A stretch of DNA of 32,000 nucleotides from Candidatus Saccharimonadota bacterium (GCA_016699935.1 CP064992.1:690001-722000); one strand, 5' to 3'. Shown: positions 2,438-24,138, counted from the first letter of the stretch. Notes: a model not told the origin generated them from the letters alone. Program-made: numbers and translations.

Positions 2438-2438
2438 C

Positions 2439-2717: not shown

Positions 2718-2732
2718 CACCTCAGACATCGA

Positions 2733-4186: not shown

Positions 4187-5351
4187 TGGCAAATGGCAAG
4201 CAGATAGATCCGACGCCGTACTTGTAGCTGCCAGCAACTCCAGTGAAGCCGACAAAGCTGCAGCAGATTATGTAGCAACCGGTTCGGGTGACCAGACAAC
4301 TATCCAGAGTGCCCTCGATAGTGCCGACCCGTCTGCTGGCACTCGAAAAAGCGGCAAGGTCTTGCTTTTTGCCGGTACCTACACGGTGACAGACACTATC
4401 AACATACCCGACAACACCACATTGACTGGTGCTGGCCGGGGCAGCCTTATCCAATTTGGTAATATCGCTGGCCAAAACAAAAACATGATTCAAAATAAGA
4501 ATACAACGGCAAGTACTGGTCTTGTACTTCGCGATATCCGACTCGACGGTAACAAGGCAACAAACACAACTGGCACGCAGCATGGCGTATATCTGCTTTC
4601 ATCAACGTTCCCAGGCTCAGGGGCAGGTGCTCGTATCGGCTCAGTAGTCCAAAACGTATGGGTGAGCAACTTTAGATCTAACGGCATATATGTACATAAC
4701 CAGTCCGGCAATAGCAACATTAGTAATAACATGGTGCAAGACAACGCAGCTATCGGTATCGCCGTGCAATCCGCACACGCAAATAACGTTACAAACAACT
4801 ATGTTGTTGGTAATGCTACTGACGGCATATGGGTATCTGGCTCCAGCTACAACGTAATAAGTATGAATAACGTCAATTCCAATACAAACCGAGGAATAGT
4901 CGTCGACGGTAGCGCGAACAGCAACACAATCAACAGCAATGCTCTAAAAGACAACGGCACCGGAACTGAAGCTAGTATTCTAGTGTTAAATGCTGCAACG
5001 ACACTTATTTCCAATAACGCGATTACAGATAATACCGGCGCATCTGCTTACGCAATAGACATTGATCCAACTGCTACAAACGTGTATATAGCCAACAACT
5101 CTTTAGTGGGTACGGCGGTTACGAACGGTGTGAGAGATCAGGGTACAAATACGACAATAGGTGGCCAGCTGAATAATGTTATGGGTACAGGGTCGTATGT
5201 TATCCAAAACGCTGGAGGTGTATCAATAAGTAGTTCTAACAAAGCTGTTTCCAGCGCAGTAAGCATTCAAAGCGGTAATAGCACGGCTGGTACCGCTGCT
5301 ACTGTAAGCATAGATACTGGTACAAGTACTGGAGTGGTACAAGCAATATAA
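4080..5351 (+). CDS. Gene A fragment: junction motif plus second, divergent beta-helix cassette A2
   Basis: IGDTRTNINAIGSPTEGMMTYDTTNKQLLTYANGKWQADRS (nt 4092-4202, close to 292-402) is followed by a different set of rungs: LVLRDIRLDGN, VQNVWVSNFRSNG, NSNISNNMVQDN, NNVTNNYVVGN, YNVISMNNVNSN, NSNTINSNALKDN, TTLISNNAITDN. Confidence 0.85.
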   Translation: MCFIGDTRTNINAIGSPTEGMMTYDTTNKQLLTYANGKWQADRSDAVLVAASNSSEADKAAADYVATGSGDQTTIQSALDSADPSAGTRKSGKVLLFAGTYTVTDTINIPDNTTLTGAGRGSLIQFGNIAGQNKNMIQNKNTTASTGLVLRDIRLDGNKATNTTGTQHGVYLLSSTFPGSGAGARIGSVVQNVWVSNFRSNGIYVHNQSGNSNISNNMVQDNAAIGIAVQSAHANNVTNNYVVGNATDGIWVSGSSYNVISMNNVNSNTNRGIVVDGSANSNTINSNALKDNGTGTEASILVLNAATTLISNNAITDNTGASAYAIDIDPTATNVYIANNSLVGTAVTNGVRDQGTNTTIGGQLNNVMGTGSYVIQNAGGVSISSSNKAVSSAVSIQSGNSTAGTAATVSIDTGTSTGVVQAI

Positions 5352-6901: not shown

Positions 6902-7437
6902 CTTTGACGCCAGAATATTCAAACGCCGTACTAAGTGCGCCAGGAACTTTGGGTGGTAGCTTTACTGCTACTGGCGTGGGTACACTGACGGCCGACTTCT
7001 GCTCCAACCAGGGTAGTGTTCTTCAGGTCAACACCAGCTTCTGTGCATCTGGCATTGCCCGCAACTACTACCGCTGGACTTCACCGCAGGCCAGCCCTCA
7101 GACATACAGTATTTATGTGTCTTACAAGTTGCCCAGTACGTTCAAGGGCTTTTATGATGACAATACCATCAAGCTAACTGGCCTGCGCGATCATGCGACC
7201 AATTCGACAGCAGCACTAAGTGTCTTCAGGAGTACTGGTAGTGCAGTGACACAATGTGGATCGACCACCACAGTCACAACAAGTACCAGCAACTGGACGA
7301 CGACTAGTTTAACAGGTAACGAAACTTCGTGTAGTTTTGCCGCCAGTGACGTTGTGCTCTTCAAGATTGATGTTACGGCTCAAAGCAATGCCAACGTTTA
7401 TATAGAAAACCTTGAGTTTAGGTATACCAATAAGTAA
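6898..7437 (+). CDS. Gene A fragment: C-terminal ~180-aa domain
   Basis: It continues the junction motif (HQCYEADGWGACGSAPDNIV|TLTPEYS...). The sequence alternates in a beta-strand-like way and ends ...VYIENLEFRYTNK, followed by TAA. Confidence 0.8.
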   Translation: MTLTPEYSNAVLSAPGTLGGSFTATGVGTLTADFCSNQGSVLQVNTSFCASGIARNYYRWTSPQASPQTYSIYVSYKLPSTFKGFYDDNTIKLTGLRDHATNSTAALSVFRSTGSAVTQCGSTTTVTTSTSNWTTTSLTGNETSCSFAASDVVLFKIDVTAQSNANVYIENLEFRYTNK

Positions 7438-7444
7438 GGAAATA

Positions 7445-7479
7445 GAGTCATGAGACAAGAGACATGAGTCAAGATAAGA
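7445..7479. repeat. Heptad tandem repeat tract c (GAGWCAT-like x5)
   Basis: gagtcat gagacaa gagacat gagtcaa gataaga. It starts 8 nt after the gene A stop. Confidence 0.6.
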
Positions 7480-7729
7480 AAGAAAAAGGAAAATAATATG
7501 AAAAATTACCAAACCACAATACCACCTCCTAGGACAGCGCGAGCCATTCGGGCGGGACCGGCTGGCTTTTTCTGGGAGCCTCCTTGGCTACCGGGTAAAC
7601 AAAATACACACAAAAATTCCAAAACACAATCAAATCCTCCTGCGTTTCACTCCTTCCATCAATCTGTTTACAGACTGCTGGAAAGCGGAAACTACGGCGG
7701 ACAAACAAAAAAATACAAAGGAAGTTAAA

Positions 7730-7852
7730 ATGAAAAAGGAAAGAAAAAGGCAAGACGATAGAGTGCTGAAGCGACTGCCGCAAAATGAGCGGCGGAAGCA
7801 GGTGCGCTTGCGTCGCCAGATACAGAGTGATCCATTGTTCTCGCTGGCATAG
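7730..7852 (+). CDS. Possible 40-aa basic small ORF (MKKERKRQDDRVLKRLPQNERRKQVRLRRQIQSDPLFSLA)
   Basis: ATG is preceded by aaggaag. Its stop lies 13 nt before heptad tract a, the same layout seen after the gene A and brnA stops. There is no homology I recognise. Confidence 0.2.
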   Translation: MKKERKRQDDRVLKRLPQNERRKQVRLRRQIQSDPLFSLA

Positions 7853-7864
7853 CCAGGGGAAACA

Positions 7865-7991
7865 GAGATATGAGATTAGAGACATGAGTCAAGAGTCATG
7901 AGACATGAGACATGAGTCATGAGTGAATCCCAAAAAAACAAACACAAAAACTCGCTAAAAATCCCAGGTGAAAATCCTGGGATTTTGCTAT
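7865..7991. repeat. Intergenic module R1, copy a: 9 heptads (7865-7927), A/C-rich tract, then hairpin
   Basis: gagatat gagatta gagacat gagtcaa gagtcat gagacat gagacat gagtcat gagtgaa, then atcccaaaaaaacaaacacaaaaactcgct and the hairpin. Positions 7890-7991 align with 8898-8990, apart from one heptad and differences in A-run length. Confidence 0.8.
7958..7986. terminator. Hairpin with flanking A/T runs (bidirectional rho-independent terminator-like) in R1a
   Basis: aaaatcccagg-tgaaaat-cctgggatttt: an 11-bp perfect stem with a 7-nt loop, A-run 5' and T-run 3'. Confidence 0.55.
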
Positions 7992-8878: not shown

Positions 8879-8893
8879 TTGCAGATGAAAGAT

Positions 8894-8990
8894 GATGCAA
8901 GAGTCATGAGACATGAGTCATGAGTGAATCCCAAAAAAAAACACAAAAAACTCGCTAAAATCCCAGGTGAAAATCCTGGGATTTTGCTAT
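8894..8990. repeat. Intergenic module R1, copy b: 5 heptads, A/C-rich tract, then hairpin
   Basis: gatgcaa gagtcat gagacat gagtcat gagtgaa, then atcccaaaaaaaaacacaaaaaactcgct and the hairpin. It starts 16 nt after the brnA stop. Confidence 0.8.
8957..8985. terminator. Hairpin of R1b (same sequence as 7958-7986)
   Basis: aaaatcccagg-tgaaaat-cctgggatttt, placed downstream of brnTA. Confidence 0.5.
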
Positions 8991-9183: not shown

Positions 9184-11679
9184 ATGGGTGAAAAATATCT
9201 GGCGAAAACTATGGCGGCAAGCAAACAGACTAGAAAAAAAATGTCTTGCTACATTTGCAAAACCTATAGCACGCAAGCTATACTACTTGCGGCCCAAGCG
9301 CAGGAAGCATCCTATGCTTGCCAGGATGGGATGGGGAGCGATGGCTGGGCTTATGCTGGTTACTGCAAATATCGATGTTGTCAACTTGCATCAAAAAATG
9401 TCGCTTACGGTCTAACGCCACAAGCTGAACAACTGCTTAGTTCACCAAAAACAACATACGGTGAAAGACTGAAGCTAGATACTAAAAAGGGTATCTACAA
9501 TTACAATCAAGGATTTCAAGTTGGTATAGGCGTGGATGGTCAGTTGAGTGGTCCAAGGTTTACCGCATCATTTGCGGTTGACCCAGCCAAGGGTACAACT
9601 GTTACCGATGCCGGTAAAGATGTCAGCGTGACGTTCACACCCAATTTCAAACTTGAACAGCCGAGGCAAAAAGACAACCGTTTGGTATACCCAGTTACGG
9701 GCACCACTGCCCAAAAAGTATATACGTTACGTGCTGCTAGCGTGAAGGAAGACATAATTTTCAACACCTATCAGGGAGACACGGCGGAGTTTGCTTACAA
9801 GCTCGATATGGCAGCTGGTACAGAAGCGAGGATGGAATCGAACGGTGCTTTGTCGATATATGGTGTAGATTCAACAATGCTTGGTAAGGTTTCGACGGGT
9901 TCAGAAAAGGATCAAGCACTACTAGAGAGCGCTCGCAAAAATGGTGAAAAGAATCTGCTACTTTTCACTTTCCCAGCGCCGTTTATCCGTGAAAGCGGTA
10001 AAAAGACCAGTCATGCAAAAGCTTGGTATAGTCTAAATGACAACGTCTTGACAATCCACGCTTCCAATTTAAAAGCCGCAAGCTATCCACTCAGTATTGA
10101 CCCGACAGTATATGTTGAAACGGCGCGCAAACTGATGCGGGGAAACAACGAATCAAATATCGACTTTGATGTCGACAATGAGCTGATCCAAAAAAGCCAA
10201 ACGACTGGCGCGCGTATCGATGCCTGGAACAATAACGGTGATCTTGACTACGCACTATGGGATCAAGGGACTGCCGTAGCAGGAGGATACATATATTCTG
10301 TCGGTGGACAGGAAGTATACAAAAAAGTATTCAACACTCAGGGGGCAGCCACCTTCAAGGTGCCGACAGGTGTCAGCTCGATTACGACCAAAATGTGGGG
10401 GGCGGGTGCTGGTGGCGGTGCTGGCGGGGCATCGGTAGCTGGCGGAACTGGTGGCGGTGCTGGCTATTTGTCGGCAACAGTAACAGTCAGTGCTGGAGAA
10501 ACCCTCAATTTGTACGTGGGTGGAGCTGGAAATGGCGGAGCGTACAGTGCAGCGGGTGTTGACGCAGGTGGCGGTGGCTCAGGTGGTGGTTTTTCTAGCT
10601 TGTATCGTAGTGCGACGCCATTAGTGATAGCAGCAGCCGGTGGTGCCGGTGGCGGCGGTCGAAACGCAACAGCCGGTGGTGCTGGTGGCGGTGGCGGTAC
10701 AGACACAGGCAACGGAGTTGCGGGTACAACTGTTGGAAATGGTGGCGGAGGCGGTGGTGCTACCACTGGTGGATCTCCAGCAGCAGGAACTGGTGGATCA
10801 GGTGGAAACAACGGTGGCTCAGCTGGTGCATCGCTGGCTGGTGGCGCAGGAGCGGATGGTCGTACAGGCAGTGTCGACGGTAGTGGCGTGGCGGGTGGTC
10901 TTACTTCGGGAGGGGCAGGTGGCTTGGCAAATCAAAATATTACTCGTCCTGGTGGTGGTGGTGGCGGTGGCGGTTACTATGGTGGTGGCGGTGGTGGCTC
11001 GACCACGAGTGCCAATGGCAATGCTGGTGGTGGCGGTGGCGGTGGCGGTGGGTATGCAAATACGGGTGCAGGCGTAACAGTTACCGCTCGAAACGTTGGT
11101 GCTGGCACAACGCCTGGCAACTCAGCCGACAGTGATCGAAATGGTGCTGGTACAGGAGGCACGGGTGGTACGGCTACAAATAGCGGAAGCGCTGGGTCAA
11201 ATGGAATAATCATCATAACCTATACGGTATCTGGTAATAGCACAGCCACAACAACGCGGGTTGCATGGGCACAATTCAACACCACTACAAACGTCATAGA
11301 AAGTCCAAATCCTGGTAACGGTGCTTGTACCGGTTGGTGCAATAATAGCGTCTACGATTTACCGCAAGCTCGAAACGGCTTCACGCTAGTAACCTATAAT
11401 GGCTTTTTATACGTCATGGGTGGTACGGACTCAAATACGGGAGGTACCTGCAGTGGTGCCCAAAAAGCCTGTACTACCGTTTATATTGCCAAACTTGGAG
11501 CAAATGGCGAGCCGCAGCTTTGGCATCCGACCGATACCAACAAAAATAACTGGGTATATTGGTATAGCGACACGGCGCTGGTGGTAGTACAGACGGCAGA
11601 AGCTATTTATGGTGCGGCCGCCTACAATAACCGCATGTATTTGCTAGGCGGAAAAACAAATGCAGCAGGGGAGGCGTGA
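9184..11679 (+). CDS. Gene B fragment 1: N-terminal domain, first blade, glycine-rich (polyglycine) domain, two blades
   Basis: ...ASYPLSIDPTVYVE ends the N-terminal domain. Then come GGYIYSVGGQ and FKVPTGVSSITTKMWGAGAGGGAGG...GGGGGGGGYYGGGGGG...GSNGIIIITY (10354-11225), followed by FLYVMGGT and MYLLGGK. The true N-terminus probably passes through the 8924-9415 frame (MLARMGWGAMAGLMLVTANI, 9314-9395) via slips in the A8 run (9234-9241) and A6 run (9393-9398). Confidence 0.85.
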   Translation: MGEKYLAKTMAASKQTRKKMSCYICKTYSTQAILLAAQAQEASYACQDGMGSDGWAYAGYCKYRCCQLASKNVAYGLTPQAEQLLSSPKTTYGERLKLDTKKGIYNYNQGFQVGIGVDGQLSGPRFTASFAVDPAKGTTVTDAGKDVSVTFTPNFKLEQPRQKDNRLVYPVTGTTAQKVYTLRAASVKEDIIFNTYQGDTAEFAYKLDMAAGTEARMESNGALSIYGVDSTMLGKVSTGSEKDQALLESARKNGEKNLLLFTFPAPFIRESGKKTSHAKAWYSLNDNVLTIHASNLKAASYPLSIDPTVYVETARKLMRGNNESNIDFDVDNELIQKSQTTGARIDAWNNNGDLDYALWDQGTAVAGGYIYSVGGQEVYKKVFNTQGAATFKVPTGVSSITTKMWGAGAGGGAGGASVAGGTGGGAGYLSATVTVSAGETLNLYVGGAGNGGAYSAAGVDAGGGGSGGGFSSLYRSATPLVIAAAGGAGGGGRNATAGGAGGGGGTDTGNGVAGTTVGNGGGGGGATTGGSPAAGTGGSGGNNGGSAGASLAGGAGADGRTGSVDGSGVAGGLTSGGAGGLANQNITRPGGGGGGGGYYGGGGGGSTTSANGNAGGGGGGGGGYANTGAGVTVTARNVGAGTTPGNSADSDRNGAGTGGTGGTATNSGSAGSNGIIIITYTVSGNSTATTTRVAWAQFNTTTNVIESPNPGNGACTGWCNNSVYDLPQARNGFTLVTYNGFLYVMGGTDSNTGGTCSGAQKACTTVYIAKLGANGEPQLWHPTDTNKNNWVYWYSDTALVVVQTAEAIYGAAAYNNRMYLLGGKTNAAGEA

Positions 11680-12122
11680 CCACTGTGGAGGTAGCGGACG
11701 TACGACCAAATGGCACTCTCGGTAGCTGGTCGACTTCTGGTATGCAAGTACTACCTTCTGTACGTCACGGTCACACGGTGCATATTTATAATGACACCAT
11801 GTATCTGATAGGGGGTAACAGCAACGGCACCCTGCAAAGCTCAGTTTATTACAGCAAACTAAATAGCGACGGCACAATGAACGGCTGGACTTTGACCAGT
11901 GGTTTTAGCACGTATGGGGCACGCACAACCCAAGGTGGCAGTTTTAGTACGGTGTGGGGAGCCTATATTTATTTAGCAGGCGGCTGTAGTACCGTAAATG
12001 GTAGCGGTTATTGCACGGTAGTGGAAAGCGATACGATATTAGCCAGCATTAACGCCGATGGCAGCTTGGCAGAGTGGAATAGCATAAACAACCTGACGGT
12101 AGTCGATCTGGATATAATTTGA
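11676..12122 (+). CDS. Gene B fragment 2: Kelch-type blades
   Basis: MYLIGGN and IYLAGGC, with W/G spacing typical of propeller blades. Confidence 0.75.
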   Translation: MTTVEVADVRPNGTLGSWSTSGMQVLPSVRHGHTVHIYNDTMYLIGGNSNGTLQSSVYYSKLNSDGTMNGWTLTSGFSTYGARTTQGGSFSTVWGAYIYLAGGCSTVNGSGYCTVVESDTILASINADGSLAEWNSINNLTVVDLDII

Positions 12123-12361: not shown

Positions 12362-12568
12362 ATGGTTGTGGTCAATAACGGATTTATTTATAACATCGGT
12401 GGTTGCGTCGCTCCAGCCAGTGCATGCAACACAAACATGAGTGGCAATATTTCTTATGCCGAGCTAAATAGTGATGGTAAATGGCAAAACCTGCTACCTG
12501 TGGTGGCACATCATATGGTCTTTGGTGTGTTGATAGTACAAATAAGATTAATGGAGCTAACGGTTTAG
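12362..12568 (+). CDS. Gene B fragment 4: Kelch-type blade (correct frame only to ~12478)
   Basis: VVNNGFIYNIGGCVAPASACNTNMSGNISYAELNSDGK. The frame then slips into that of 12481-14517. Confidence 0.55.
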   Translation: MVVVNNGFIYNIGGCVAPASACNTNMSGNISYAELNSDGKWQNLLPVVAHHMVFGVLIVQIRLMELTV

Positions 12569-14517
12569 GTGCGGCTGGAGCGACAGTTTTCAATAATGTG
12601 ATTTACGTGGCTGGCGGTACAGATTCTACCAACTGGCAGTCTACGCTGTGGCGAGTTGGCTTAAATGCCAATGGATCTTTAGCAGGTGCCTGGTCGACCC
12701 AAGCATTCGGTACAGGAGCTGGTAATCTTGGTTTGACAGGTAATGATGCGGACGCACGGGGTTACTTCTATATGTTTACACGAGCAAACCCAAATGCAGC
12801 CAACTCAAACCCAGGAAACTTATACATCTTGGGAGGTTGTGCTGGTTCGAGTGGGATTGGTTGCAATACTTACTATACCGAAACTATAAAGTGCAATATT
12901 GATACAAGTGGCGTAGTCAATACATGTGGTACTGGCAGCCAATTGCAAATAGATGCCGACAACATAACATCGGGAGATCAAGGCTTAGGACTCATGGCAG
13001 GCACAGTGTATGCCAATAGACTGTATTTGGTGGGTGGTTCTTGCACTAGCGTGGGGGCGGCAGGCAACCCATGTGGATCGACCTATTCAGCAAACCGCAA
13101 GGACACTATATATGCCAAAATTGACAGCAGTAACAACATTGTGGCAGAAAGCGGCGGGGTCTGGCAGTTTGCATCGGCGCAAATGAATCCGGTTCGACGA
13201 CGGGCTATGTCATTTGGTTACAATGGGTATATATACTCCTTGGCAGGCTTTAGCGGCAGCAGCTCGCTTCAGGACTTACTATTCTCGAAGATAGATGTTA
13301 GCACCGGTGATATGGAGCCCTGGTCGAGCTCTGGAGTGGTGGTGACGCCGCGCTGGGATCTTCGTGCTATTGTGAGTAACGGGTATGTCTATGCCATAGG
13401 GGGCTGTGGTCTTGGCAACGGTTCGCAGCCAGAAGCACCGAGCAACTGCTTAACCATGCAGCCAGAAATTCAGACATTTCAGCTATACAATAATGATAGC
13501 GGAACACCCATGGCCTATAGTGCCACTGGTACATGTGGCGCTGGGCCGTGCTCTGGTGCGGGTGGAGTTGATCGAGTGGGGGGAAGTTCTACTATCTTGA
13601 ATGGCTACATCTACTATACGGGTGGCTGTACTAACACTGGTTGTACCACCATGAGCAACCTTACCTACTACGCCCCGATAGATAGTAATGGTGGTGTTGG
13701 TACCTGGGTGCAAGCTGCCAGTACACTACCGACAGCTCTAGCCTGGGGCAAATTACTGGCGGCCGGAGGTGCGCTTTACTATATAGGTGGGCAAACCGGT
13801 GCGGCGGCCACAACTGCCGTTTCGACAGTGTATTATACGTCTGGAATAGCTTCTGGCGTACCTACCTGGAATGCCAGCGCGGCGAGCGGTGGCGTGGGAG
13901 ATACCGCTGGACAAGTGGCGCAACCGCGCACTCAGTTTGGCGCTGCAGCATGGAATAATCGACTATATGTGGTGGGTGGTTACAGCTCTGGCGGTACCGT
14001 TCAATCTACGGTGTATGTTAGCCCGCAGCTGAGTTCGGGGGGAAATATCTCGGCTGATTCCTGGGCTTCATCGACGGCGTTTAGTGTGGCACGTGCTGGC
14101 TTAGCTGCTGTAGCCTATGCCAATAACCTGTACCTATTTGGCGGTGAGGAAACAGCTGGAAATTACCTGAACGACTCACAGTTTACCCGAATAAATAGCG
14201 ATGGTACGGTCGATGCTTGGACTTACAGCACAAGTTTACCAGGTAGGCTGCGGGACGCCGAAGGATATGCTGCCAATGGCTACCTCTATCTTTTGGGAGG
14301 TCGTTCGGCCAGCACAACATGTGTACCAAACACGCTGGTTACACCAATCAGTGCCAATACGACGATTGCTAGTGGTAATAATCCGACAGGAGTTGGTGAA
14401 TGGTACGAAACCAACAAAAAGTATACTGGCGATCGTTATGGAGCGGCTGTTGCTTATGCCAACGGGCGAGCCTACATAATGGGTGGTGCCTGTAATAGTG
14501 CTTTTGGCGGCCGGTGA
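12481..14517 (+). CDS. Gene B fragment 5: 11 consecutive Kelch-type beta-propeller blades
   Basis: Blade signatures: IYVAGGT, LYILGGC, LYLVGGS, IYSLAGF, VYAIGGC, IYYTGGC, LYYIGGQ, LYVVGGY, LYLFGGE, LYLLGGR, AYIMGGA. Each is followed ~25-30 residues later by a conserved W. Confidence 0.85.
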   Translation: MAKPATCGGTSYGLWCVDSTNKINGANGLGAAGATVFNNVIYVAGGTDSTNWQSTLWRVGLNANGSLAGAWSTQAFGTGAGNLGLTGNDADARGYFYMFTRANPNAANSNPGNLYILGGCAGSSGIGCNTYYTETIKCNIDTSGVVNTCGTGSQLQIDADNITSGDQGLGLMAGTVYANRLYLVGGSCTSVGAAGNPCGSTYSANRKDTIYAKIDSSNNIVAESGGVWQFASAQMNPVRRRAMSFGYNGYIYSLAGFSGSSSLQDLLFSKIDVSTGDMEPWSSSGVVVTPRWDLRAIVSNGYVYAIGGCGLGNGSQPEAPSNCLTMQPEIQTFQLYNNDSGTPMAYSATGTCGAGPCSGAGGVDRVGGSSTILNGYIYYTGGCTNTGCTTMSNLTYYAPIDSNGGVGTWVQAASTLPTALAWGKLLAAGGALYYIGGQTGAAATTAVSTVYYTSGIASGVPTWNASAASGGVGDTAGQVAQPRTQFGAAAWNNRLYVVGGYSSGGTVQSTVYVSPQLSSGGNISADSWASSTAFSVARAGLAAVAYANNLYLFGGEETAGNYLNDSQFTRINSDGTVDAWTYSTSLPGRLRDAEGYAANGYLYLLGGRSASTTCVPNTLVTPISANTTIASGNNPTGVGEWYETNKKYTGDRYGAAVAYANGRAYIMGGACNSAFGGR

Positions 14518-15047
14518 CCGCACGTATCAGACGACGCTGAAATCACAGCCCCAAGTCGCTAAATATTCACGCATGATCGACACTGACACAGATGTTTTCC
14601 CGACCAAATGGCTGCTAAACGGGCTTGATAATTCGACTGGTGCCGAATGGTATCTACGATATCCGTAGCATGAACGATATAGATGGTGATACGGCTGACT
14701 GTGTTGTAGATATGACTACATGGGGACAAAGAGACAAATTACGGAAAGGTGACACTAGGTTCACCAGCAACCTACACGCCGAAAGATGGTGGTGGCACAA
14801 CTACAAACTGTGCTCGCTATTTCTATTTTTCAGTCAATATTGATAGCTCACAAGCTTTTGGCTACCCAGAAAGTGTTGACCTCGCGGACCAACCATTGCT
14901 GACCTAAGCTTGTTCTTCACAGCTGACCCTAGTAAACGGCTCTTGCATGGCAAAACTTTCACCGGCGGTGAGCAGCAACCTTTGGATACACCTTTTAAGG
15001 TTCATAATGTTAGTTATGTAATCTCGCAAGGAAAAATATGGAGTTAG
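14483..15047 (+). CDS. Gene B C-terminal region, spread over four frames
   Basis: GDRTYQTTLKSQPQVAKYSRMIDTDTDVFPTKWLLNGLDNSTGAEWYLRY | SMNDIDGDTADCVVDMTTWGQ | ETNYGKVTLGSPATYTPKDGGGTTTNCARYFYFSVNIDSSQAFGYPESV | RGPTIADLSLFFTADPSKRLLHGKTFTGGEQQPLDTPF... Confidence 0.55.
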
Positions 15048-15149
15048 AGCAGAATTTAAACGCAGCAATGAGCTGAGACGAAGATGCGTGGGAAGCGTGG
15101 CTGGGTGAAGAAAGCTCAAAAAAGCTATTAAACCAAAAAACCCTGCAAT

Positions 15150-15187
15150 ATGTAAAATAAATATACGATCGTATATAATATTTACGT
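15150..15187. promoter_or_regulatory. Imperfect 38-bp palindrome P1 overlapping a promoter-like -35/-10 upstream of the PaaX-like gene
   Basis: atgtaaaataaatatacga|tcgtatataatatttacgt, with 14 of 19 arm positions complementary. TGTAAA (15151-15156), 17-nt spacer, TATAAT (15174-15179). The gene start lies 32 nt downstream. Confidence 0.5.
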
Positions 15188-15218
15188 GGGGAAACATGAT
15201 GTAACGAAAAGATGGTCG

Positions 15219-15807
15219 ATGAAATTATTCGTTTTGGTGCGCGGGGCAGCCATCACGTCAGTCGCGGTAGCGCGAATATTGCAGAAGGTGCTCGTGGGAC
15301 CAGTCGAAAAATTAAGTCGAAAATCGATGAGAGGAAGAGAAGCGTAGAAATGAGAGGGAGGCACAGCGGGTCATACGATACATGAAGCAGCAGGGATTAC
15401 TGGCGGGGTCGTATGAACATGGGCTGCAATTGACCCGAAAAGCGCAGGGTAGGCTGGAACGCATAGAAATTGATTCTATTACTGTCACACCGACAACAGT
15501 GTGGGACGGTCTATGGAGAATAATTATTTATGATATCCCCGAAGAAAAAGGGGGCTCGCCACGCTTTTTGGTTACGGTTGCACCAGATCGGTTGTTTTCA
15601 GCTCCAGAAAAGCACCTGGATTATACCGTATGCGTGTCGCAATGAGATAGCGACACTCGCAGCACACCTGGTGTTGACGAATATGTTTCTTACTTTGAAG
15701 CAGTAAACCTAGATAATGAAAAGGTGCTGTTACGGCGTTTTAAAAACAAATATCCAGATACGAACTTTTCACAACATTCCCGCCATCATCATGCCAAGGC
15801 TTCCTAG
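15219..15807 (+). CDS. PaaX-like / Cas2-fold domain putative transcriptional regulator, reconstructed across ~3 slips
   Basis: MKLFVLVRGAAITSVAVARILQKVLVGPVEKLSRKSM | EKRRNEREAQRVIRYMKQQGLLAGSYEHGLQLTRKAQGRLERIEIDSITVTPTTVWDGLWRIIIYDIPEEK | ARHAFWLRLHQIGCFQLQKSTWIIPYACRNEIATLAAHL | GVDEYVSYFEAVNLDNEKVLLRRFKNKY. The W-D-G-x-W-R-h-h-h-F/Y-D-I-P signature is typical of PaaX-type proteins. The ORF-track piece is 15382-15645. Confidence 0.65.
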
Positions 15808-16054
15808 GAATGCTCACCCGAGCCTTGCAATGCTACTTCGAGAAATTGTGTTCGATTTACGTAATTGCTCCCGCCTCCCTAAAACCATGCATCTTCAGAG
15901 GCCTATTTTTCTTCGTTGTAGTGAGATGGAGCCTCTTCTGGGGAGGCCTATCAATCATCATTACGGATACAGCAACGTGTAATATTTGCGCATCAAGCGT
16001 ATGCCGTACACATATAATCATCATCGTCTAACTCACTCGTACTTCAACTGTAAT

Positions 16055-16094
16055 GCATGTAAATAATTTGTACGATCGTACAAATTATTTACAT
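16055..16094. promoter_or_regulatory. Perfect 40-bp palindrome P2, related to P1
   Basis: catgtaaataatttgtacga|tcgtacaaattatttacatg, a perfect 20+20 palindrome. It shares ATGTAAA...TACGATCGTA...TTTACAT with P1. Confidence 0.6.
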
Positions 16095-16116
16095 GGTTGA
16101 AAATCATGTCGTGAGT

Positions 16117-16216
16117 CGGAGGTTGGACTCGGAGGTTGGGAGATAGGGGTTGGGAGTTAGGGGTTTGGGAGTTAGGGTGTTGGGAGATAGGGGTTGGGAG
16201 TTAGGCGAGTGGGAGG
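16117..16216. repeat. G-rich 14-15 bp tandem repeat (~7 units, consensus GGGTTGGGAGWTAG)
   Basis: ggaggttggactc ggaggttgggagatag gggttgggagttag gggtttgggagttag ggtgttgggagatag gggttgggagttag gcgagtgggaggtg. There are at least 10 GGG/GGGG tracts on the + strand. Confidence 0.85.
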
Positions 16217-16388
16217 TGTGATATGCTCACTATGCTTACGATGGATGCGAGCTGGCTCAACCTCACTTTTGCTTTGTGGTACGCACTGGTAGCGAGTTTT
16301 GAACCGTCTGCGGGGTCTTCATCTCATCACGAAGCAAGAGGAATTGCATTCGTACCAGGGATGCAGAAGCTGGTTATATGCTCGTGGT

Positions 16389-17182
16389 ATGCTAGAGTTA
16401 TGGACATCAGGAATTTTCGTAAAATCAGAATTAGACGAAGAAGCGTGGGAAGCGTGGCTGGGTGAAGAAACCTCAAAAAAGCTAGTAAGCCAAAACAGCC
16501 AGCCAAAATTCATACACCATCCCAGGTGAAATCAATAGATGGTTTGGCCATCCCGGGTGAAACAAGTTGACCAAGTGACGCATAAAAAGCCAAGAAAAAT
16601 CAGGCGCTGCAACCATATCTATTCAAATACATATGCCAAAGTTTCAGTTGCCGTCATGGCGACCACGCAAAGTACATCTGCCGTGGCAGCAGATGAAACC
16701 ATGGCTGATTGGCCTAGGGCTCATGGCGTTGGTAATTGTTGGAGGTAAACTGCTGCTAGGCAAAGCAACCATGAACAAACCAAACACGGTCAAAACACCG
16801 GTGGTGGTACAAACCGAACTGGGCTACAAGCCGGTGCTACCAGAGGTGCGGGCTGCCACAGAAACGCAGCCAACCAAACCAAATATGACGAAAAACGTAA
16901 GCTTTACAGCTTTAATGACACGTATAAGGGGCAAAATTACTGTAGATCGGCAGTCGCTGCCCGAAAAGTTGACTAGAAAAGTGAAATAGTAAAACTAGCG
17001 GATAAGCTTGCAAATGACTGAGGTATTTACCACAACTATTGGTGAAGTGAGAATGTCTACCAGTAAAGAAACAGGTGCACAGCGACTGATGGTGACGAAG
17101 TAGTAAAATGCTAATGTTTATCCAGAGCACCACCAAACTTTCCATTACAGAGTGGGTAGATTACATACAATCCCTGGAATAA
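16389..17182 (+). CDS. Membrane-anchored hypothetical protein, reconstructed across several slips (start uncertain: 16299 or 16389)
   Basis: MLELWTSGIFVKSELDEEAWEAWLGEETSKKLVSQNSQPKFIHHPR | SIDGLAIPG... | ...MPKFQLPSWRPRKVHLPWQQMKPWLIGLGLMALVIVGGKLLL (TM segment; ORF-track 16633-16989) ...ITVDRQSLPEKL | EIVKLADKLAND | EVFTTTIGEVRMSTSKETGAQRLMV | SSKMLMFIQSTTKLSITEWVDYIQSLE, then stop. The architecture resembles the 22866-23366 product. Confidence 0.45.
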
Positions 17183-17605
17183 TTTCTATGTTAGTTCACA
17201 GAAAAGCGTACTGGTTGTCATCTGTGTCGTTTAGTTCAATACCCAGTTGAAATGCGAAGTGTAATCGCGTTTGCCACTTAAAATGTCATAAAGCGACAAC
17301 ATATAATATTTTCGCATATTAAGTTAAAAATGATGAAGATTATATAATTACGTAGCGATATAAACAATGAATTATAATATTCATTTCTTTTTAAAAGTCA
17401 TTGTATATATGTTAAATTAACTCTTTTGCATTGTTGTAATGCTTTCTTTTGTTCACATAGTCAGGATAGGGCGGCTAAGTCAATTAATGGTACAACTATT
17501 TTGACTTATGTGTACAAGTTATTGTATTAACCTTGATACAAGAGGAAAATACTAAGTGTACTGAATAAACAAAAACAGTTTAAGTACAAAACAAAAACAA
17601 AAAAC

Positions 17606-20600
17606 ATGAAAAGGCCAACAAACATACTCGTACTGTTTGTGCATACCCTCTGGCACCCGGCCAAGAGGGGTTTTGTCGTCCCTAGCTACCGAACCAACCA
17701 CCCCTTCACTCATCTCAGCTGGTCCCATGGTCACATGAGCTCAAAGTCTGTCAGTCAAGTGCTGTTAGTCTTGCTCATCCTACCCTTGTTTTTCCTCACG
17801 CGCGGGTACACAGGCGCACCACGCGCCTATGCCGCCACATCCGACAACCTGAACTTCCAAGCTCGTTTGCAAACTGCCTCTGGTGCGATTGTCGCTGATG
17901 GCTACTACAACATCGAGTTCAAGCTCTACAGTGCTGCTTCTGGTGGTAGCTCTCTGTGGGATGAAACCTACAGCTACAGCTCTGGCTCTGGTCAGTGTAG
18001 CGGCCCCTTGGGCACCAATGACTGCCGTGTCCGAGTAGCCAATGGCTACGTCACCGTCAACCTAGGCACAGTCACCAGCTTCCCAGGCACCATGCCCTGG
18101 GATCAGCAGCTCTACCTGACCATGAACGTAGGTGGTACCACCAGCTCTGGAGCCATTACCTACGACGGAGAGATGAACCCCAGGCTGAAGATGACGGCTG
18201 TCCCCTATGCCTTCAACGCCAAGACAGCCAGCAGTTTAGCCACGAGTAATGGAGCCCTGCAGTCTACTCTGAGCATTGTCGCGCCTACAGGCGGCAACCA
18301 AACCTTCCAAATACCGGATCAAGGTGCCGGAGGAACTTATACGCTACTTACAGGTAGTGCCGCAAACGGCATGTATATTCAGCTGCAAAGCTCAACTCCG
18401 GGGACACAACAAACCGGTAACTTCAACATCAGTGGCACAGGTATAGCTGCCACTTTGCAGGCGCAAACTATCGACACTTCATCTGCCAGTGTGTTGAGTT
18501 TGGGCGTTAGCAATGCCACAAATATACAAGTAGGCAGCAATACAACTGATGCAACAGCAAAACTCTTTATCCTAGATAGTTATAATGGTGGGACTGATCC
18601 AACGGGATACAACGGGGCGATGTACTACAATACCAGCTTGAGTAAATTTCGCTGCTATGTTGGTGGTGCATGGCTCGATTGCGAGGGCTCAGCTGGGTCA
18701 GGCGTAACAACTATCGGAGCCATAGATTCCCAGACGAAAAGTGCCAACGGTGCAGTTATAAGTGGCACTACTATATATATGCAGACAGCAGATGCAACAA
18801 ATCCTGGTCTCGTGAGTACGGGATCTCAAACATTTGCTGGAGACAAAACGTATTCTGGCAATATCATAGTTTCGGGCAATCAAAGCATAACTGTCACTGG
18901 TGGCGCCACCGGCACCCGCCCAGTCAGCCCCACAGAAGGCATGGTCTACTACGACACGACTACGAAACAACTCTTGACGTACGCCAATGGCAAATGGCAA
19001 GCTGACCGAAGCGAAGCCATCTTGGTTGCCGCCAGTGACAGCTCAGATGCCGACAAAGCCTCAGCTGACTATGTAGCTGATGGTAACACTGGTGCAGCCC
19101 TTGATGGTGACCAAGTGCAGATCAACGACGCTCTTACGGCTGCCAGTGCTTCAGGTACCCGTAAGACCGGTAAGGTTTACCTCTTCGCTGGTACGTACAC
19201 TGCTGATGCCACTATCCTCATCCCGAACGGTGTTACCCTCGCTGGTAGTGGTCAAAGCTCAGTCATAAAACTGGCAGACATTGATGCGACCGACAACCTC
19301 ATCGAAAACAGTGACACGGCAACTGGTGCCAACATCACTATTCGTGACCTCCGCCTAGAAGGTCAACGCAACCTCAACACGGCTGGCACGCAGCACGGTA
19401 TCTACCTGCTCGGCATGGGCAAAGAAACAACCGGCAACAATGCCGTCAACGGCGCCTTCATTAGTAACGTCACCGTCTACTACTTCCGCACCGATGGTAT
19501 CCGCCTCGATACCTCCTCTCACAACACGATTACCAGCAGCATCTTCCGAGACAATGAGCAGTATGGTCTCTACATCCTGAATCTAAACTCCAAGTTCAAC
19601 AGCATCACCGCCAACCAGTCAGAAGGCAACAACGTCGACGGCTTCCGACTCGAATCTGGCTACAGCAACACCTTCAGTGGTAACGTTGCCTACGACAATA
19701 CTTCGGCCGGTATGGCTATAGCCGGCAGCGCCAATAGCAACAACATCGTCAATAACAACTTCCGCGGCAACAATGCCTATGGTATCTATGTCGGTGCTTC
19801 GACCCTGAACAACATCAGCTCAAACAACATCCGGGGTGGTAGCACCTACGGTATCTATGTTTCTGGCTCAGACGGCAACACGGTAAACGACAACAACATC
19901 TATGACACTGGTAGCGCAACAACCAACAACGCTATCTACTTGACTGATTCTGATCGTAACAGCATTAATGGCAACGTGATCGATGACACCTCAGCATCCA
20001 CTAACAACTACGCCATCAATATCTTCAATAGCACCAGCAACAGTAACTACATATCTGGAAACATCCTCGGCGATAACGGTGCCGGTGTCACAGCTACCAT
20101 TAACGATGCTGCCACAGACACTACCTACGGTGGCCAGGCTACCGCCCTCAACAGCACCGACATCCTCTTCAAACAGTCGGCTTCAACTGCCGCTTTCCAG
20201 ATCCAAAATGCTAACGGCACCAGTATATTGAACATTGACTCAACAAACGGAGAACTAGAAGTCGGTAGTTACAATGGCGGCACTAACCCAGTAGCCGGTA
20301 AGATCGTTATAGCTACTACTGCCAATGCCAACACAGTTACTCTGCAGTCGGCTACTCAGACTGGTAACTACACCCTCAGCATCCCAGCCCTAACAGCTAA
20401 TGCCAATGTATGTACCGACAACGCTATCTGCTCTGGTTACCTTGGTACTAGCACTGGTGTCCAACTGCAAGCTGCTACTCCTGGCACAGCCCAGACAGGC
20501 CACTTCAACATCACTGGTACAGGCATAGCCGGTACTAGCCTCCTCACCCCACTGCTAGACACTGCAACTGGTGTACCTCTCAACATCGGCACCAGCGGCG

Positions 20601-20818
20601 GCCCGACAACTACTCAGATCAACCTCAACCAAAATGTGGTGGTCGCAAATGACAAATCAATCATCATTGGTTCTACATCAGGCATAGGAAATGCAACAGC
20701 CTTGCAGGTGAACTATGGTTCAACCCAAATCTTTACAGTAGATTCATCAGCCGGCAACAACCGTGTAACAGTGGGATCACCAGGTGACTGTATCAATCAG
20801 GGGGTAAATTCTGCATAG
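17606..20818 (+). CDS. Gene C fragment 1: signal peptide, N-terminal fibre domain, two junction motifs, beta-helix cassette, linker modules
   Basis: The likely true start is Met at 17735 (MSSKSVSQVLLVLLILPLFFLTRGYTGAPRAYA). Then NLNFQARLQTASGAIVADGYYNIEFKLYSAASGGSSLWDE..., GAMYYNTSLSKFRCYVGGAWLDC (18614-18688), TEGMVYYDTTTKQLLTYANGKWQADRS, and a beta-helix at 19045-20135. This 3.2 kb ORF is uninterrupted. Confidence 0.9.
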   Translation: MKRPTNILVLFVHTLWHPAKRGFVVPSYRTNHPFTHLSWSHGHMSSKSVSQVLLVLLILPLFFLTRGYTGAPRAYAATSDNLNFQARLQTASGAIVADGYYNIEFKLYSAASGGSSLWDETYSYSSGSGQCSGPLGTNDCRVRVANGYVTVNLGTVTSFPGTMPWDQQLYLTMNVGGTTSSGAITYDGEMNPRLKMTAVPYAFNAKTASSLATSNGALQSTLSIVAPTGGNQTFQIPDQGAGGTYTLLTGSAANGMYIQLQSSTPGTQQTGNFNISGTGIAATLQAQTIDTSSASVLSLGVSNATNIQVGSNTTDATAKLFILDSYNGGTDPTGYNGAMYYNTSLSKFRCYVGGAWLDCEGSAGSGVTTIGAIDSQTKSANGAVISGTTIYMQTADATNPGLVSTGSQTFAGDKTYSGNIIVSGNQSITVTGGATGTRPVSPTEGMVYYDTTTKQLLTYANGKWQADRSEAILVAASDSSDADKASADYVADGNTGAALDGDQVQINDALTAASASGTRKTGKVYLFAGTYTADATILIPNGVTLAGSGQSSVIKLADIDATDNLIENSDTATGANITIRDLRLEGQRNLNTAGTQHGIYLLGMGKETTGNNAVNGAFISNVTVYYFRTDGIRLDTSSHNTITSSIFRDNEQYGLYILNLNSKFNSITANQSEGNNVDGFRLESGYSNTFSGNVAYDNTSAGMAIAGSANSNNIVNNNFRGNNAYGIYVGASTLNNISSNNIRGGSTYGIYVSGSDGNTVNDNNIYDTGSATTNNAIYLTDSDRNSINGNVIDDTSASTNNYAINIFNSTSNSNYISGNILGDNGAGVTATINDAATDTTYGGQATALNSTDILFKQSASTAAFQIQNANGTSILNIDSTNGELEVGSYNGGTNPVAGKIVIATTANANTVTLQSATQTGNYTLSIPALTANANVCTDNAICSGYLGTSTGVQLQAATPGTAQTGHFNITGTGIAGTSLLTPLLDTATGVPLNIGTSGGPTTTQINLNQNVVVANDKSIIIGSTSGIGNATALQVNYGSTQIFTVDSSAGNNRVTVGSPGDCINQGVNSA
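18988..20557. repeat. Copy 2 of ~1.56 kb near-identical beta-helix cassette (partner 389-1952)
   Basis: See 389-1952. This copy is frame-intact. Confidence 0.9.
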
Positions 20819-20865
20819 TACAAACAGCAAGCGGTGTAGGCCCAGCCGTAAACCAGAACAATACC

Positions 20866-21096
20866 ATGAAAATATCAAGTGGTGCGACGGTAAATACCTC
20901 ATATGCCCAGGTGATATATTTGCAAGACACCAGTTCGGCAGCGAGTCTCGGCTATGGACTTTTGGTTGATATGACACAAACAACGAACAATAATGCTACA
21001 GCAAATGCTATAACAGCAACCGCTCGTACACAAAACGCTGGCAACTTGTTGCTATTGAACACCGGGGGAACAGGCTACGGCGGAGTAGGGGAATAA
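20866..21096 (+). CDS. Gene C fragment 2
   Basis: The frame is open upstream to ~20806. ISSGATVNTSYAQVIYLQDTSSAASLGYGLLVDMTQTTNNNATANAITATARTQNAGNLLLLNTGGTGYGG. Confidence 0.6.
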   Translation: MKISSGATVNTSYAQVIYLQDTSSAASLGYGLLVDMTQTTNNNATANAITATARTQNAGNLLLLNTGGTGYGGVGE

Positions 21097-21896
21097 ATGG
21101 TGGCACAAATGTCTTTACAGTCAGTAATACAGGTGTAGTTACTAGTAAAAACCAAGCGAATAGCACTTCGGCATTTCGTATCCAAAATACAAACGGCACT
21201 AATCTACTAAACGTAAACACTACCAATGGTGAAATAGGACTCGGTAGCTACAATGGTGGTACCAACCCTGTAGCTGGCAAGATAGTCCTTGCTAATGCCG
21301 CCAATGCCAGTACAGTTACTCTCCAAACTGGTGCCACCGGTACTAGCTACAGCCTGACGCTGCCGACTGCCCTAGGTTCAACCGGACAGTGCCTATACGA
21401 CACAACTGGGGCTGGGGTGCTCGGCTGGGCGACGTGTGCTGGTGGTAGTGGCATCAACAACGGCACGACGACCCAAACTGCTAACTTCAACATTCAGTCA
21501 GCTGCGAGTGGTTCGATTGGTGCGATCGTCCAAGGTGCAGCCAGTCAAAGTGTCGATATTTTCCAGGTGAAACTTTCTGGCGGCAACATACCATTCAGTA
21601 TTAGTAGCACTGGAGATGTCAATTTGTTGCGGAATACGCTGTATATGAACACCACGACAACTAACTCTAAACGGATATACATTTCGGGCAATATCAACTC
21701 TGGCGTTGCTAGCCAATACGGCATCCAGAACGAACCGATCTTCTTACCTTCTGCTGGGTCAAACAACATATACGGCTTAAGCAACACAGCAAAACTGGCA
21801 ACAAGTGCAGTCAATATCAATCAGTTGTTTGGCAGCGTAACGGGCGTATCAACGAATGCGGATTACACGGGGTACTTACAGGTGCAGTTGGCTTAA
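21096..21896 (+). CDS. Gene C fragment 3 (ORF track lists only 21417-21896)
   Basis: NGGTNVFTVSNTGVVTSKNQANSTSAFRIQNTNGTNLLNVNTTNGEIGLGSYNGGTNPVAGKIVLANAANASTVTLQTGATGTSYSLTLP parallels FQIQNANGTSILNIDSTNGELEVGSYNGGTNPVAGKIVIATTANANTVTLQS in A and C. Confidence 0.65.
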   Translation, partial: NGGTNVFTVSNTGVVTSKNQANSTSAFRIQNTNGTNLLNVNTTNGEIGLGSYNGGTNPVAGKIVLANAANASTVTLQTGATGTSYSLTLPTALGSTGQCLYDTTGAGVLGWATCAGGSGINNGTTTQTANFNIQSAASGSIGAIVQGAASQSVDIFQVKLSGGNIPFSISSTGDVNLLRNTLYMNTTTTNSKRIYISGNINSGVASQYGIQNEPIFLPSAGSNNIYGLSNTAKLATSAVNINQLFGSVTGVSTNADYTGYLQVQLA

Positions 21897-21913
21897 ACAT
21901 CCAAGACCCTTCA

Positions 21914-22846
21914 ATGGCTGGTAGTAAGGCGGCGACATACTACGGAATATCTATCAACGGTGTTACGGGGAATGGTGGTAATACGACAGGCAATATTCAA
22001 AACACCCAACTTCTCATAGGTGGCACTACAGTTGGAGCTGGTGCTGGTGGTACGGTTTACAACATGGGACAAAGAATTGTGATGCCGTCTGGCTCTGGTG
22101 GAACAACGCACAACACCGGGCTGGCAATCACAGACGCCCAGGCGACAATAACGGGCACTTGGTCACTCTATAACGCCAGTGCGCAAGCAAGCTATTTTGG
22201 CAGTAATGTGACCATAGGCACGCTACTAACTGCCGATGTTACTAACGGCAATGTCCAAATAGGCTCCGCCACCACTAACGCCACCGCCAATCAATTCATC
22301 TTAGACAGCTACAATAACGCCACTGACCCGACTGGGACAAACGGTGCCATGTACTACAACACCGCAACCGGCACATTCCGTTGCTACGAAAACAGTGCCT
22401 GGAAGGACTGCCTGACACGCCATATTACGACTCTCGGCAGTGATGTCACGAACAACAACGCCACTGCTAACACCATCGCAGACGTCACAGGACTAAGTTT
22501 TGCAGTCACATCAGGCAAGACCTACCGATTCCGTGCCAATGTCGCTTACACCGCGGCAGCCACCACCACTGGCTCGCGCTGGAGCGTCAATGGTCCTGCT
22601 AACACATTACTGACCTATACCTCGCGCTATGGCATTACCGCTACCACAGAAACCGTGAACTATCTCGCCGCCTACGATTCACCAGCGGCAAGCAACAGTG
22701 ATTCTCCAGCAACCGGCGGAAACACGGCGACCATAGAGGGTATAGTGACACCATCTGCGAATGGAACGGTGATCATACGGTTTGCCTCGGAAGTCTCGAG
22801 CTCTGCGATTGTCGCCAAGGCCGGAAGCACTATAGAGTGGTGGTAG
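21914..22846 (+). CDS. Gene C fragment 4: junction motif plus C-terminal beta-sandwich-like domain
   Basis: FILDSYNNATDPTGTNGAMYYNTATGTFRCYENSAWKDC (22344-22412), then ...GKTYRFRANVAYTAAATTTGSRWSVNGPA...GTVIIRFASEVSSSAIVAKAGSTIEWW, followed by a stop. Confidence 0.8.
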   Translation: MAGSKAATYYGISINGVTGNGGNTTGNIQNTQLLIGGTTVGAGAGGTVYNMGQRIVMPSGSGGTTHNTGLAITDAQATITGTWSLYNASAQASYFGSNVTIGTLLTADVTNGNVQIGSATTNATANQFILDSYNNATDPTGTNGAMYYNTATGTFRCYENSAWKDCLTRHITTLGSDVTNNNATANTIADVTGLSFAVTSGKTYRFRANVAYTAAATTTGSRWSVNGPANTLLTYTSRYGITATTETVNYLAAYDSPAASNSDSPATGGNTATIEGIVTPSANGTVIIRFASEVSSSAIVAKAGSTIEWW

Positions 22847-23516: not shown

Positions 23517-24138
23517 ATGCCATCACGTAATATCTATAAAGAATATGTCGAACAGACGTACTATCATGTCTACAACCGAGGCGTGAACAAAGAAAGAACG
23601 GATATTTCTCGATGAACAAGATTACCTGACGTTTATTGCTCTCATCGAACGCTATATGGGTCTGCGGGCTAGTAGGCGGCAAAATGGCAGTAAATATGAA
23701 AACTTTGACGGTAGATTAGACATTTTGGCCTATTGTCTTATGCCAAATCATTTTCACTTTTTTATATATCAGTACGATGAAAAAGCTATGTATGAGTTTT
23801 TCAAACGGATCACGGTATCATACAGTATGTACTTCAATGAACGCTATAAGCGAGTTGGCCCAGTCTTTCAGCAGCGATATCGCGCATCGCTAATCTATTC
23901 GGACGAGTATTTTTTGCATATTTCCCGCTATATTCATCTCAATCCCCGTGAATGGGCTAGCTAATGGTGGTCGAGTATACATGACTATACAGGTCATAGT
24001 ATTACGACTTGGGTACATCCAGAAAAAGTTCTAGAACATTTCAATGACGGGGCAAAGGAATATACTGAGTTCGTTGCCGACTATGAATCAGCTCACCGCG
24101 AGCTAGAACACATACAACACATTCTGGCTGATCGCTAA
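23517..24138 (+). CDS. REP-associated tyrosine transposase (RAYT, IS200-like Y1/HUH family), with one slip (~23590) and one in-frame TAA (23962-23964)
   Basis: MPSRNIYKEYVEQTYYHVYNRGVNKE | RIFLDEQDYLTFIALIERY...LDILAYCLMPNHFHFFIYQ (HUH motif) ...YSMYFNERYKRVGPVFQQRYRASLIYSDEYFLHISRYIHLNP (catalytic Tyr context) REWAS*WWSSIHDYTG...HILADR. The ORF-track pieces are 23433-23615 and 23656-23964. Confidence 0.75.

Follow-up and report, generated by a model that had tools for sequence, protein, structure and literature searches.

A chromosomal Saccharibacteria gene for a probable trimeric surface fibre with a phage-related, lectin-like tip

The closest described system to the gene considered here is the mosaic adhesive trimeric (MAT) fibres by which the predator Bdellovibrio bacteriovorus recognises its prey (Caulton et al. 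2024, PMC10769870). MAT proteins carry a signal peptide and a conserved beta-rich N-domain of ~130 aa, followed by a trimeric modular fibre that ends in S74 or in other tips including TNF-like lectin folds, and the fibres are displayed at the surface and bind glycans (PMC10769870). The taxa given for them are Oligoflexia, Micavibrio, FCB, PVC and Omnitrophica; the Candidate Phyla Radiation (CPR) is not among them (PMC10769870). Multiple adhesins are required for the epibiotic growth of Saccharibacteria, and those of Southlakia epibionticum were found to be essential by transposon sequencing (Wang et al. 2023, PMC10633639). How ultrasmall CPR epibionts choose and grip their hosts is poorly understood: the only candidates in the literature we searched are type IV pili and a small number of adhesins, and nowhere in it did we find tail-fibre-like fibres described for Saccharibacteria or Patescibacteria. 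Here we analyse 32,000 nt from a Candidatus Saccharimonadota bacterium (GCA_016699935.1, CP064992.1:690001-722000), called the window throughout, and in it one gene, gene C, in which an original prediction made from the sequence alone had seen a giant surface protein of phage-fibre-style modules. Gene C most likely encodes a trimeric surface fibre whose lectin-like tip binds glycans of another cell, a reading to which we assign a probability of roughly 60%.

The end of the protein had been described as a terminal beta-sandwich-like domain. AlphaFold2 (AF2) modelled the C-terminal 140 aa as an all-beta jelly roll with a predicted local distance difference test (pLDDT) score of 87.6, which bears this description out. 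Foldseek comparison of the model with the PDB returned PLTL, BC2L-C, the Chlamydia Pgp3 C-domain and C1QL1 at probability 1.0, as well as C1q and TNF ligands and the tip of Bdellovibrio Bd2734 (8okw; E 2e-3, probability 1.0), while PDB sequence searches of the tip, as a single sequence and as a profile, gave no meaningful match. Among viral models in BFVD 151 proteins matched the tip at E<=1e-3 (best E 1e-11, TM 0.72), and the head of this list consisted of collagen-repeat and other tail fibres. Sequence relatives of the tip numbered 1,674; the 120 best listed are 61–75% identical and are mostly proteins of ~280 aa. One relative, in a crAss-like contig, adjoins a 2,570-aa protein and Ring and Muzzle genes, and a second one shares a 183-kb contig with Gp80 and Baseplate_J. 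The tip was further found in twelve IMG/VR loci at 59–72% identity; in one of them it stands next to internal-virion, lytic-tail and tail-fibre genes, in a second near a portal gene. No match was obtained by tblastn of the tip open reading frame (ORF) and the N-terminal 412 aa against 50,697 GenBank phage records, and the phage link of the tip seems to be visible only in metagenomic phage contigs. The ~280-aa proteins themselves combine a conserved N-terminal half with the TNF-like tip and form a large unannotated family with no significant Pfam or PHROG match (L001 10001-10852; L002 10001-10858; L009 7581-8435; L012 7602-8444). Phage contigs of crAss-like, podovirus-like and 183-kb type carry them within their structural modules.

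Bacterial genomes of many phyla encode signal-peptide proteins that end in this tip, the best genome match being a Saccharibacteria metagenome-assembled genome (MAG) with 80% identity. In Acidobacteriota and Planctomycetota MAGs it stands straight after long collagen G-X-Y repeats at 71–72% identity (L025 3775-6432, L030 4906-6432), a bacterial C1q-like architecture. A rough neighbour-joining tree groups the tip of gene C with those of Saccharibacteria, Bacteroidia and Acidobacteriota, the phage tips forming the neighbouring group. TNF/C1q folds are obligate trimers. From this fold class, the collagen fusions and an S74-ended paralogue (P0098) we infer that the tip is trimeric; the collagen fusions, as indirect evidence, appear to be the best support for it.

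At the other end, gene C starts with a predicted export signal consisting of a basic stretch, a hydrophobic 13-mer (Kyte-Doolittle 3.3) and an AYA/A site, and the same hydrophobic feature precedes the N-domain in 87 of 90 full-length homologues. The start at 17606 is supported by a 'TLWxxAKRGFVV' stretch common to gene C and the protein P0051. Directly after the signal follows an N-domain of ~135 aa, as it does in 104 of 120 homologues. This agrees with the signal peptide and NLNFQARLQ..DGYYNIEFKLY..LWDE domain read from the sequence before; the three motifs begin at 17846, 17897 and 17954. AF2 modelled the N-domain as a beta-sandwich (pLDDT 81.7). Its family comprises 5,279 cluster representatives at E<=1e-3, and in all of the 150 best listed matches the domain is N-terminal, the proteins that carry it ranging from 179 to 4,884 aa. 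Its matches among the viral models and in the PDB were weak, so the N-domain looks like a bacterial and not a phage part. The proposal of phage-fibre-style modules therefore holds for the tip, which is 59–75% identical to proteins of phage structural modules, but not for the N-domain. The N-domain profile weakly matches PDB 3sik/3sz6 (E 0.008), deposited as 'conserved domain protein' and presumably the IsdX1 NEAT domain; this may be a chance resemblance between beta-sandwiches.

Between these two ends lies a long series of recurring modules (Table 1). A motif search of gene C located QTGNFNISGTG at 18410 and QTGHFNITGTG at 20492, FILDSYN at 18566 and 22295, and GAMYYNT...FRCY...W.DC at 18614 and 22343. 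Every motif named in the original prediction was found within a few bases of its expected place. We measured the internal repeats by fragment-versus-self BLASTP. The linker at aa 258-300 recurs at aa 952-995 (55% identity, E 1e-10), which confirms the recurring linker modules proposed earlier. An R module of ~110 aa is present at aa 857-969 and 1184-1297 (47–70% identity, E 1e-18), and the junction-1 module at aa 295-359 and 1540-1603 (63–72% identity, E 1e-14 to 1e-18). As judged from these alignments, module recurrence is far above chance. The second junction-1 copy was modelled as a small three-stranded meander (strands E4-7, E12-17, E20-23). Two kinds of Tyr/Trp junction motif had been distinguished, and both are present; since junction 2 aligns with junction 1 (aa 443-492 with 1579-1627, 32% identity, E 1.5e-5), they seem to be divergent versions of one motif rather than separate kinds. 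Residues of junction 2 are 90–100% conserved over 100 homologues. In their strict forms junction 1 occurs 58 times in 45 of 120 family members and junction 2 in 36 of the 120, and neither was found in the 240 phage-type proteins examined. Junction-1-like hairpins are nevertheless present in IMG/VR phage virion proteins, one of them a 783-aa protein whose gene is flanked by those of a major head protein and a virion structural protein. PHROGs and NCBIfam searches with the four ORF pieces of gene C gave only a weak phrog_20787 match (aa 431-454) and the TIGR03804 repeat. An exact search for the 310-aa ORF in the assembly collection returned no record.

Table 1. Features of gene C, with positions counted from the first base of the window
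Feature	Positions	Strand	Description	Basis
Gene C, whole	17606..22846	+	1,747 aa after addition of one G at each of three G-runs	ORF list, three-frame translation, homologue collinearity
Predicted export signal or signal-anchor	17606..17833	+	basic stretch, hydrophobic helix (VLLVLLILPLFFL), AYA/A site	Kyte-Doolittle maximum 3.3
N-domain (aa 77-212)	17834..18241	+	beta-sandwich, presumed cell-proximal base	homologues, AF2 pLDDT 81.7
Linker module 1	18377..18505	+	QLQ..QQTGNFNISGTG..	recurs at aa 952-995
Junction-1 module, copy 1	18488..18682	+	..FILDSYNGGTDPTGYNGAMYYNTSLSKFRCYVGGAWLDC	63–72% identical to aa 1540-1603
Junction-2 motif	18932..19000	+	TEGMVYYDTTTKQLLTYANGKWQ; caps beta-helix	regular expression; left edge of near-identical cassette
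Right-handed parallel beta-helix	19001..20140	+	NosD/CASH type, conserved N-cap	PF05048, PF13229, TIGR03804
R module, copy 1	20174..20458	+	FQIQNANGTSILNIDSTNGELEVGSYNGGTNPVAGKIV...	47–70% identical to aa 1184-1297
Linker module 2	20459..20590	+	QLQ..AQTGHFNITGTG..LLDTATGVPLNIGT	right edge of cassette common with paralogue
Frameshift 1	20800..20804	+	G5 run short of one G	P0117 collinear over site
Frameshift 2	21088..21091	+	G4 run short of one G	P0117 collinear over site
R module, copy 2, and third FNI-like linker	21153..21494	+		
Frameshift 3	21869..21872	+	G4 run short of one G	P0102, P0029 collinear over site
Junction-1 module, copy 2	22220..22411	+	immediately ahead of tip	self-BLASTP
Tip domain (aa 1607-1747)	22421..22846	+	TNF/C1q-like jelly roll	AF2, Foldseek, sequence relatives

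The family to which gene C belongs is strongly mosaic. In the intact Saccharibacteria protein L018 (1,834 aa), the N-domain and the junction-plus-tip end known from gene C enclose an unrelated middle part with no beta-helix, and L021 likewise combines this base and tip without a beta-helix. The nearest homologues of the beta-helix (P0001-P0003) carry another C-terminal domain. P0098 joins an N-domain of the gene C kind (58% identity) to a C-terminal Peptidase_S74 (E 1.4e-10), the phage trimerisation chaperone; P0033 bears SO2946-like_C, P0016 bears BppL_N, and some members carry CBM_4_9. Gene C itself gave no Pfam match to Peptidase_S74 (PF13884). Exchange is visible within the window as well: a 1.6-kb beta-helix cassette at ~18930-20570 is 91–100% identical per 100 nt to a stretch at ~330-1960, 18.6 kb away, whereas the flanks show 45–60% identity to the paralogue. 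The cassette is bounded by junction 2 on one side and linker 2 on the other, so the conserved junction and linker modules behave as recombination boundaries. Window positions 1-5351 hold one or two more fibre genes of this family, frameshifted and cut by the window start. They contain two beta-helix domains, at 253-1989 (92–98% protein identity to gene C) and at 4125-5228 (39%), and near-identical internal duplications (1-255 with 2733-2987; 2091-2390 with 3058-3357).

The beta-helix had been predicted to sit directly after the second junction. Pfam matches at aa 573-769, both above the gathering threshold, agree with this: NosD (PF05048) with E 2.9e-25 and 89.4 bits against a cut-off of 23.6, and Beta_helix (PF13229) with E 1.6e-18 and 67.3 bits against 25.9. 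The domain further resembles the mannuronan C5-epimerase 8ja4 (E 2.3e-7). Together with Pectate_lyase_3 matches in many homologues, the lectin-like tip and an order of parts as in tailspikes, these matches speak for a surface enzyme that degrades polysaccharides (depolymerase, lyase or hydrolase), in which the beta-helix would be catalytic and the tip carbohydrate-binding and whose activity would feed the cell or breach a host capsule or wall. We consider such an enzyme unlikely. Only the N-cap, glycines and the Asn ladder are conserved at >=90% in 100 homologous beta-helix domains, and no acidic or His pair reaches this level in the turns at aa 600-780 of these domains, although lineage-specific sites may exist. 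An AlgE-type epimerase was rejected, as the catalytic YG(F/I)DPH(D/E) motif is absent and the aligned position reads YYFRTDGIRLD. Because a conserved acidic pair in the central turns and the AlgE motif are both missing, cleavage of host glycans, which had been suggested for this protein, is unsupported. Moreover, L018 and L021 share base and tip with gene C and do without the beta-helix altogether.

Two observations weigh against a fibre for recognising other cells. The tip is 50–75% identical across phages and bacteria of many phyla and thus unusually conserved. Such conservation is atypical of receptor-binding domains with host specificity; it could reflect a ligand of a generic sort or a role in structure. 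In addition, gene C as sequenced carries three frameshifts, all within 1.1 kb.

A generic ligand would suit an envelope-structural or self-adhesion protein, for instance an S-layer-like coat or an aggregation or biofilm fibre, with no part in host recognition. The very large size of the family, the N-terminal position of the presumed anchor domain throughout its 150 best listed matches and a gene C sequence rich in Thr, Ser, Asn and Gly fit such a protein too. The extreme mosaicism and swapping of tips, however, suit diversifying recognition better than a lattice, and the recent exchange of a cassette among tandem paralogues and a tip common to phage tail proteins point in the same direction. 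We therefore regard a purely structural role as quite improbable.

The frameshifts raise the possibility that gene C is a dead pseudogene, the decaying remnant of a fibre gene, and the paralogous copy at 253-2010 likewise has three. The first open frame of gene C extends from 17606 to 20818 (1,070 aa), after which the frame shifts three times, each time in the direction expected from loss of a single base. Addition of one G at each of the three runs yields one ORF of 1,747 aa that no internal stop interrupts, and P0117, P0102 and P0029 align collinearly through the breaks; on these grounds we treat gene C as one gene, every segment of which is matched by intact homologues. The same kind of defect is found elsewhere in the window. 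The gene of an HtrA-type protease is split at ~30330 and a Kelch-repeat gene at ~11665, each by loss of 1 nt, and the paralogous copy shows three further 1-nt losses in comparison with gene C (AAA to AA, CC to C, CCC to CC). All eight apparent frameshifts in the window (1283, 1600, 1784, 11665, 20800, 21088, 21869 and 30330) are one-base losses in homopolymers of 2–5 nt and affect HtrA, the Kelch gene and the two fibre paralogues; no insertion, nonsense codon, in-frame stop or larger deletion was present among the defects examined. Losses in one direction only are the pattern produced when a sequencer under-calls homopolymers. Since the deletion type that interrupts gene C also breaks a housekeeping protease, the Kelch gene and the paralogue, under-calling in the assembly is likelier than decay of gene C, and a pseudogene is improbable. 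Systematic under-calling in this assembly looks likely and affects any gene call from the CP064992.1 source. Phase variation was rejected as a cause of the frameshifts because the runs are only 2–5 nt long, consist of G, A and C, and affect HtrA as well.

The named sources of the relatives of gene C (n=345, long proteins of 900–1,850 aa) are Candidatus Saccharibacteria, Saccharimonadales or Patescibacteria MAGs. Its neighbours include ParA, ParB, signal peptidase I (LepB), LytR_cpsA_psr, HtrA, PrmC and further beta-helix and Kelch proteins. From this setting gene C appears to be chromosomal and to lie outside any prophage structural module, and the predicted export signal, the housekeeping neighbours and the Saccharibacteria relatives agree with the earlier view of a secreted chromosomal protein of a CPR organism. 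That gene C is the tail fibre or tailspike of an integrated prophage or phage-derived particle, as the ties of its tip, its junction motif and the S74 and BppL_N domains of its family to phage proteins might suggest, is hardly credible and was rejected from the context: the 32-kb window holds no capsid, portal, terminase, baseplate or tail-tube gene (Pfam, PHROGs), the protein combines an export signal with an N-domain of bacterial character whose viral matches are weak, and this layout is kept in thousands of relatives.

Several other features of the window were recorded. Between the fibre genes lie two large Kelch-repeat (beta-propeller) proteins, 9184-12122 and 12481-14517, which may be additional surface or lectin-type proteins belonging to one island with the fibres. 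Arrays of a 7-nt unit (GAGTCAT / GAGACAT) occupy AT-rich intergenic DNA at 7436-7949 and 8885-8950 upstream of ORFs, and the copies at 7884-7949 and 8885-8950 are followed by a conserved 'GAGTGAATCCCAAAAAAA' tail. The low-coding 3-kb stretch 14517-17606 contains a G-rich tandem repeat (16134-16215, ~5 copies of the unit GGTTGGGAGTTAGG), a PaaX_M fragment (15382-15645) and a 71-nt direct repeat (15076-15146 / 16433-16503, 90% identity). Shortly after the end of gene C comes a partial IS200-like Y1 transposase at 23656-23964 (Y1_Tnp E 1.3e-8, model positions 40-119), which could be what is left of a mobile element beside the fibre locus. Rfam and tRNA scans of the window found nothing. Among the relatives, the source given for P0016 is a Thermoleophilia (Actinobacteria) MAG. 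Saccharibacteria usually have Actinobacteria as their hosts, so this assignment may be a binning artefact from an attached epibiont.

If gene C is a glycan-binding fibre, the following arrangement can be envisaged. The protein would be exported by the Sec machinery via its N-terminal signal or signal-anchor, and the N-domain of ~135 aa would anchor the base of the fibre at the cell envelope. Three chains would form a long stalk of repeated linker, R and Tyr/Trp-hairpin modules, bearing one right-handed beta-helix (CASH/NosD) per chain. At the distal end a trimeric TNF/C1q-like jelly-roll head would bind a glycan of a second cell, for which the epibiont's bacterial host is the most plausible candidate. 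Specificity might shift as tandem paralogues trade tips and beta-helix cassettes with one another and with phages, and the conserved motifs of junctions and linkers would serve as points of exchange.

Tentatively, and with more doubt than confidence, we extend this picture beyond a single gene: Saccharibacteria, and probably other CPR bacteria, may hold a family, very large in size, of mosaic fibres exported by Sec that shares a pool of distal modules with phage receptor-binding proteins, so that epibionts would recognise hosts by phage-type tips and change host range by cassette exchange at the junction motifs, among tandem paralogues as well as with phages. If true, host range in episymbiotic bacteria would have one genetic determinant in these fibres, and swappable phage-type tips would supply concrete, testable candidates for it. 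It would show receptor-binding modules moving between phages and cellular parasites of bacteria. Hosts could then be predicted for uncultured Saccharibacteria from the type of tip, and tips might find use as glycan probes.

Set beside known systems, gene C shares with tailspikes and depolymerases and with CASH/NosD proteins (PF05048, PF13229, PF12708) an N-capped beta-helix between stalk and distal domain. It differs from tailspikes and depolymerases in that no acidic or His pair is conserved at >=90% in the central turns of the 100 homologous domains compared, in that the beta-helix is optional, being absent from L018 and L021, and in its location outside a phage structural module. With phage C1q/TNF-headed tail fibres and the ~280-aa tip proteins it has in common the C-terminal 140 aa (59–75% identical) and the jelly-roll fold, as well as the junction-1-like hairpins of virion proteins; unlike these, it carries an export signal together with a bacterial N-domain in place of a virion-attachment domain, and no phage genome surrounds it. 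The best PDB matches of the tip are the TNF-like lectins BC2L-C of Burkholderia (N-domain, 2wq4) and PLTL of Photorhabdus (9ib6/9ib7) together with Pgp3, at E 1e-4 to 5e-4, with a TMq of about 0.5 and only 9–15% sequence identity. BC2L-C, PLTL and the Pgp3 C-domain are trimers that hold their ligands at protomer interfaces.

Among Saccharibacteria, the Southlakia adhesins are comparable in being envelope proteins with glycan-binding domains whose proposed targets are host-cell glycans (PMC10633639). They differ in having VCBS, dockerin and FN3 domains, and no tail-fibre-like or beta-helix/TNF-tip protein is described among them (PMC10633639).

The likeness to the Bdellovibrio MAT fibres, a precedent that the original prediction had not mentioned, goes furthest. 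In both cases chromosomal proteins of ~1,000 or more residues resemble phage tail fibres and have a long modular stalk, and a signal is followed by a beta-rich N-domain, a correspondence that for gene C is one of layout only. No sequence match was found between gene C and the solved MAT fragments, and the Bacteriovoracaceae loci L071 and L074 showed ordinary phage-tail-fibre shafts (Mtd_N, Collar, PTR, S74) and yielded no MAT N-domain. In MAT shafts the beta-helices are trimeric and intertwined, whereas the stalk of gene C contains a NosD/CASH beta-helix formed by a single chain; the tip of gene C further differs in having close phage sequence relatives. Both systems have paralogues that split into S74-ended and non-S74 forms, here P0098 and gene C, and variable tips, TNF-like ones included, that are swapped among paralogues; the tip of gene C matches that of Bd2734. 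In both, the organism lives attached to other bacteria, and a fibre family of the kind suggested here would carry the Bdellovibrio MAT principle into a second, unrelated bacteria-on-bacteria lifestyle.

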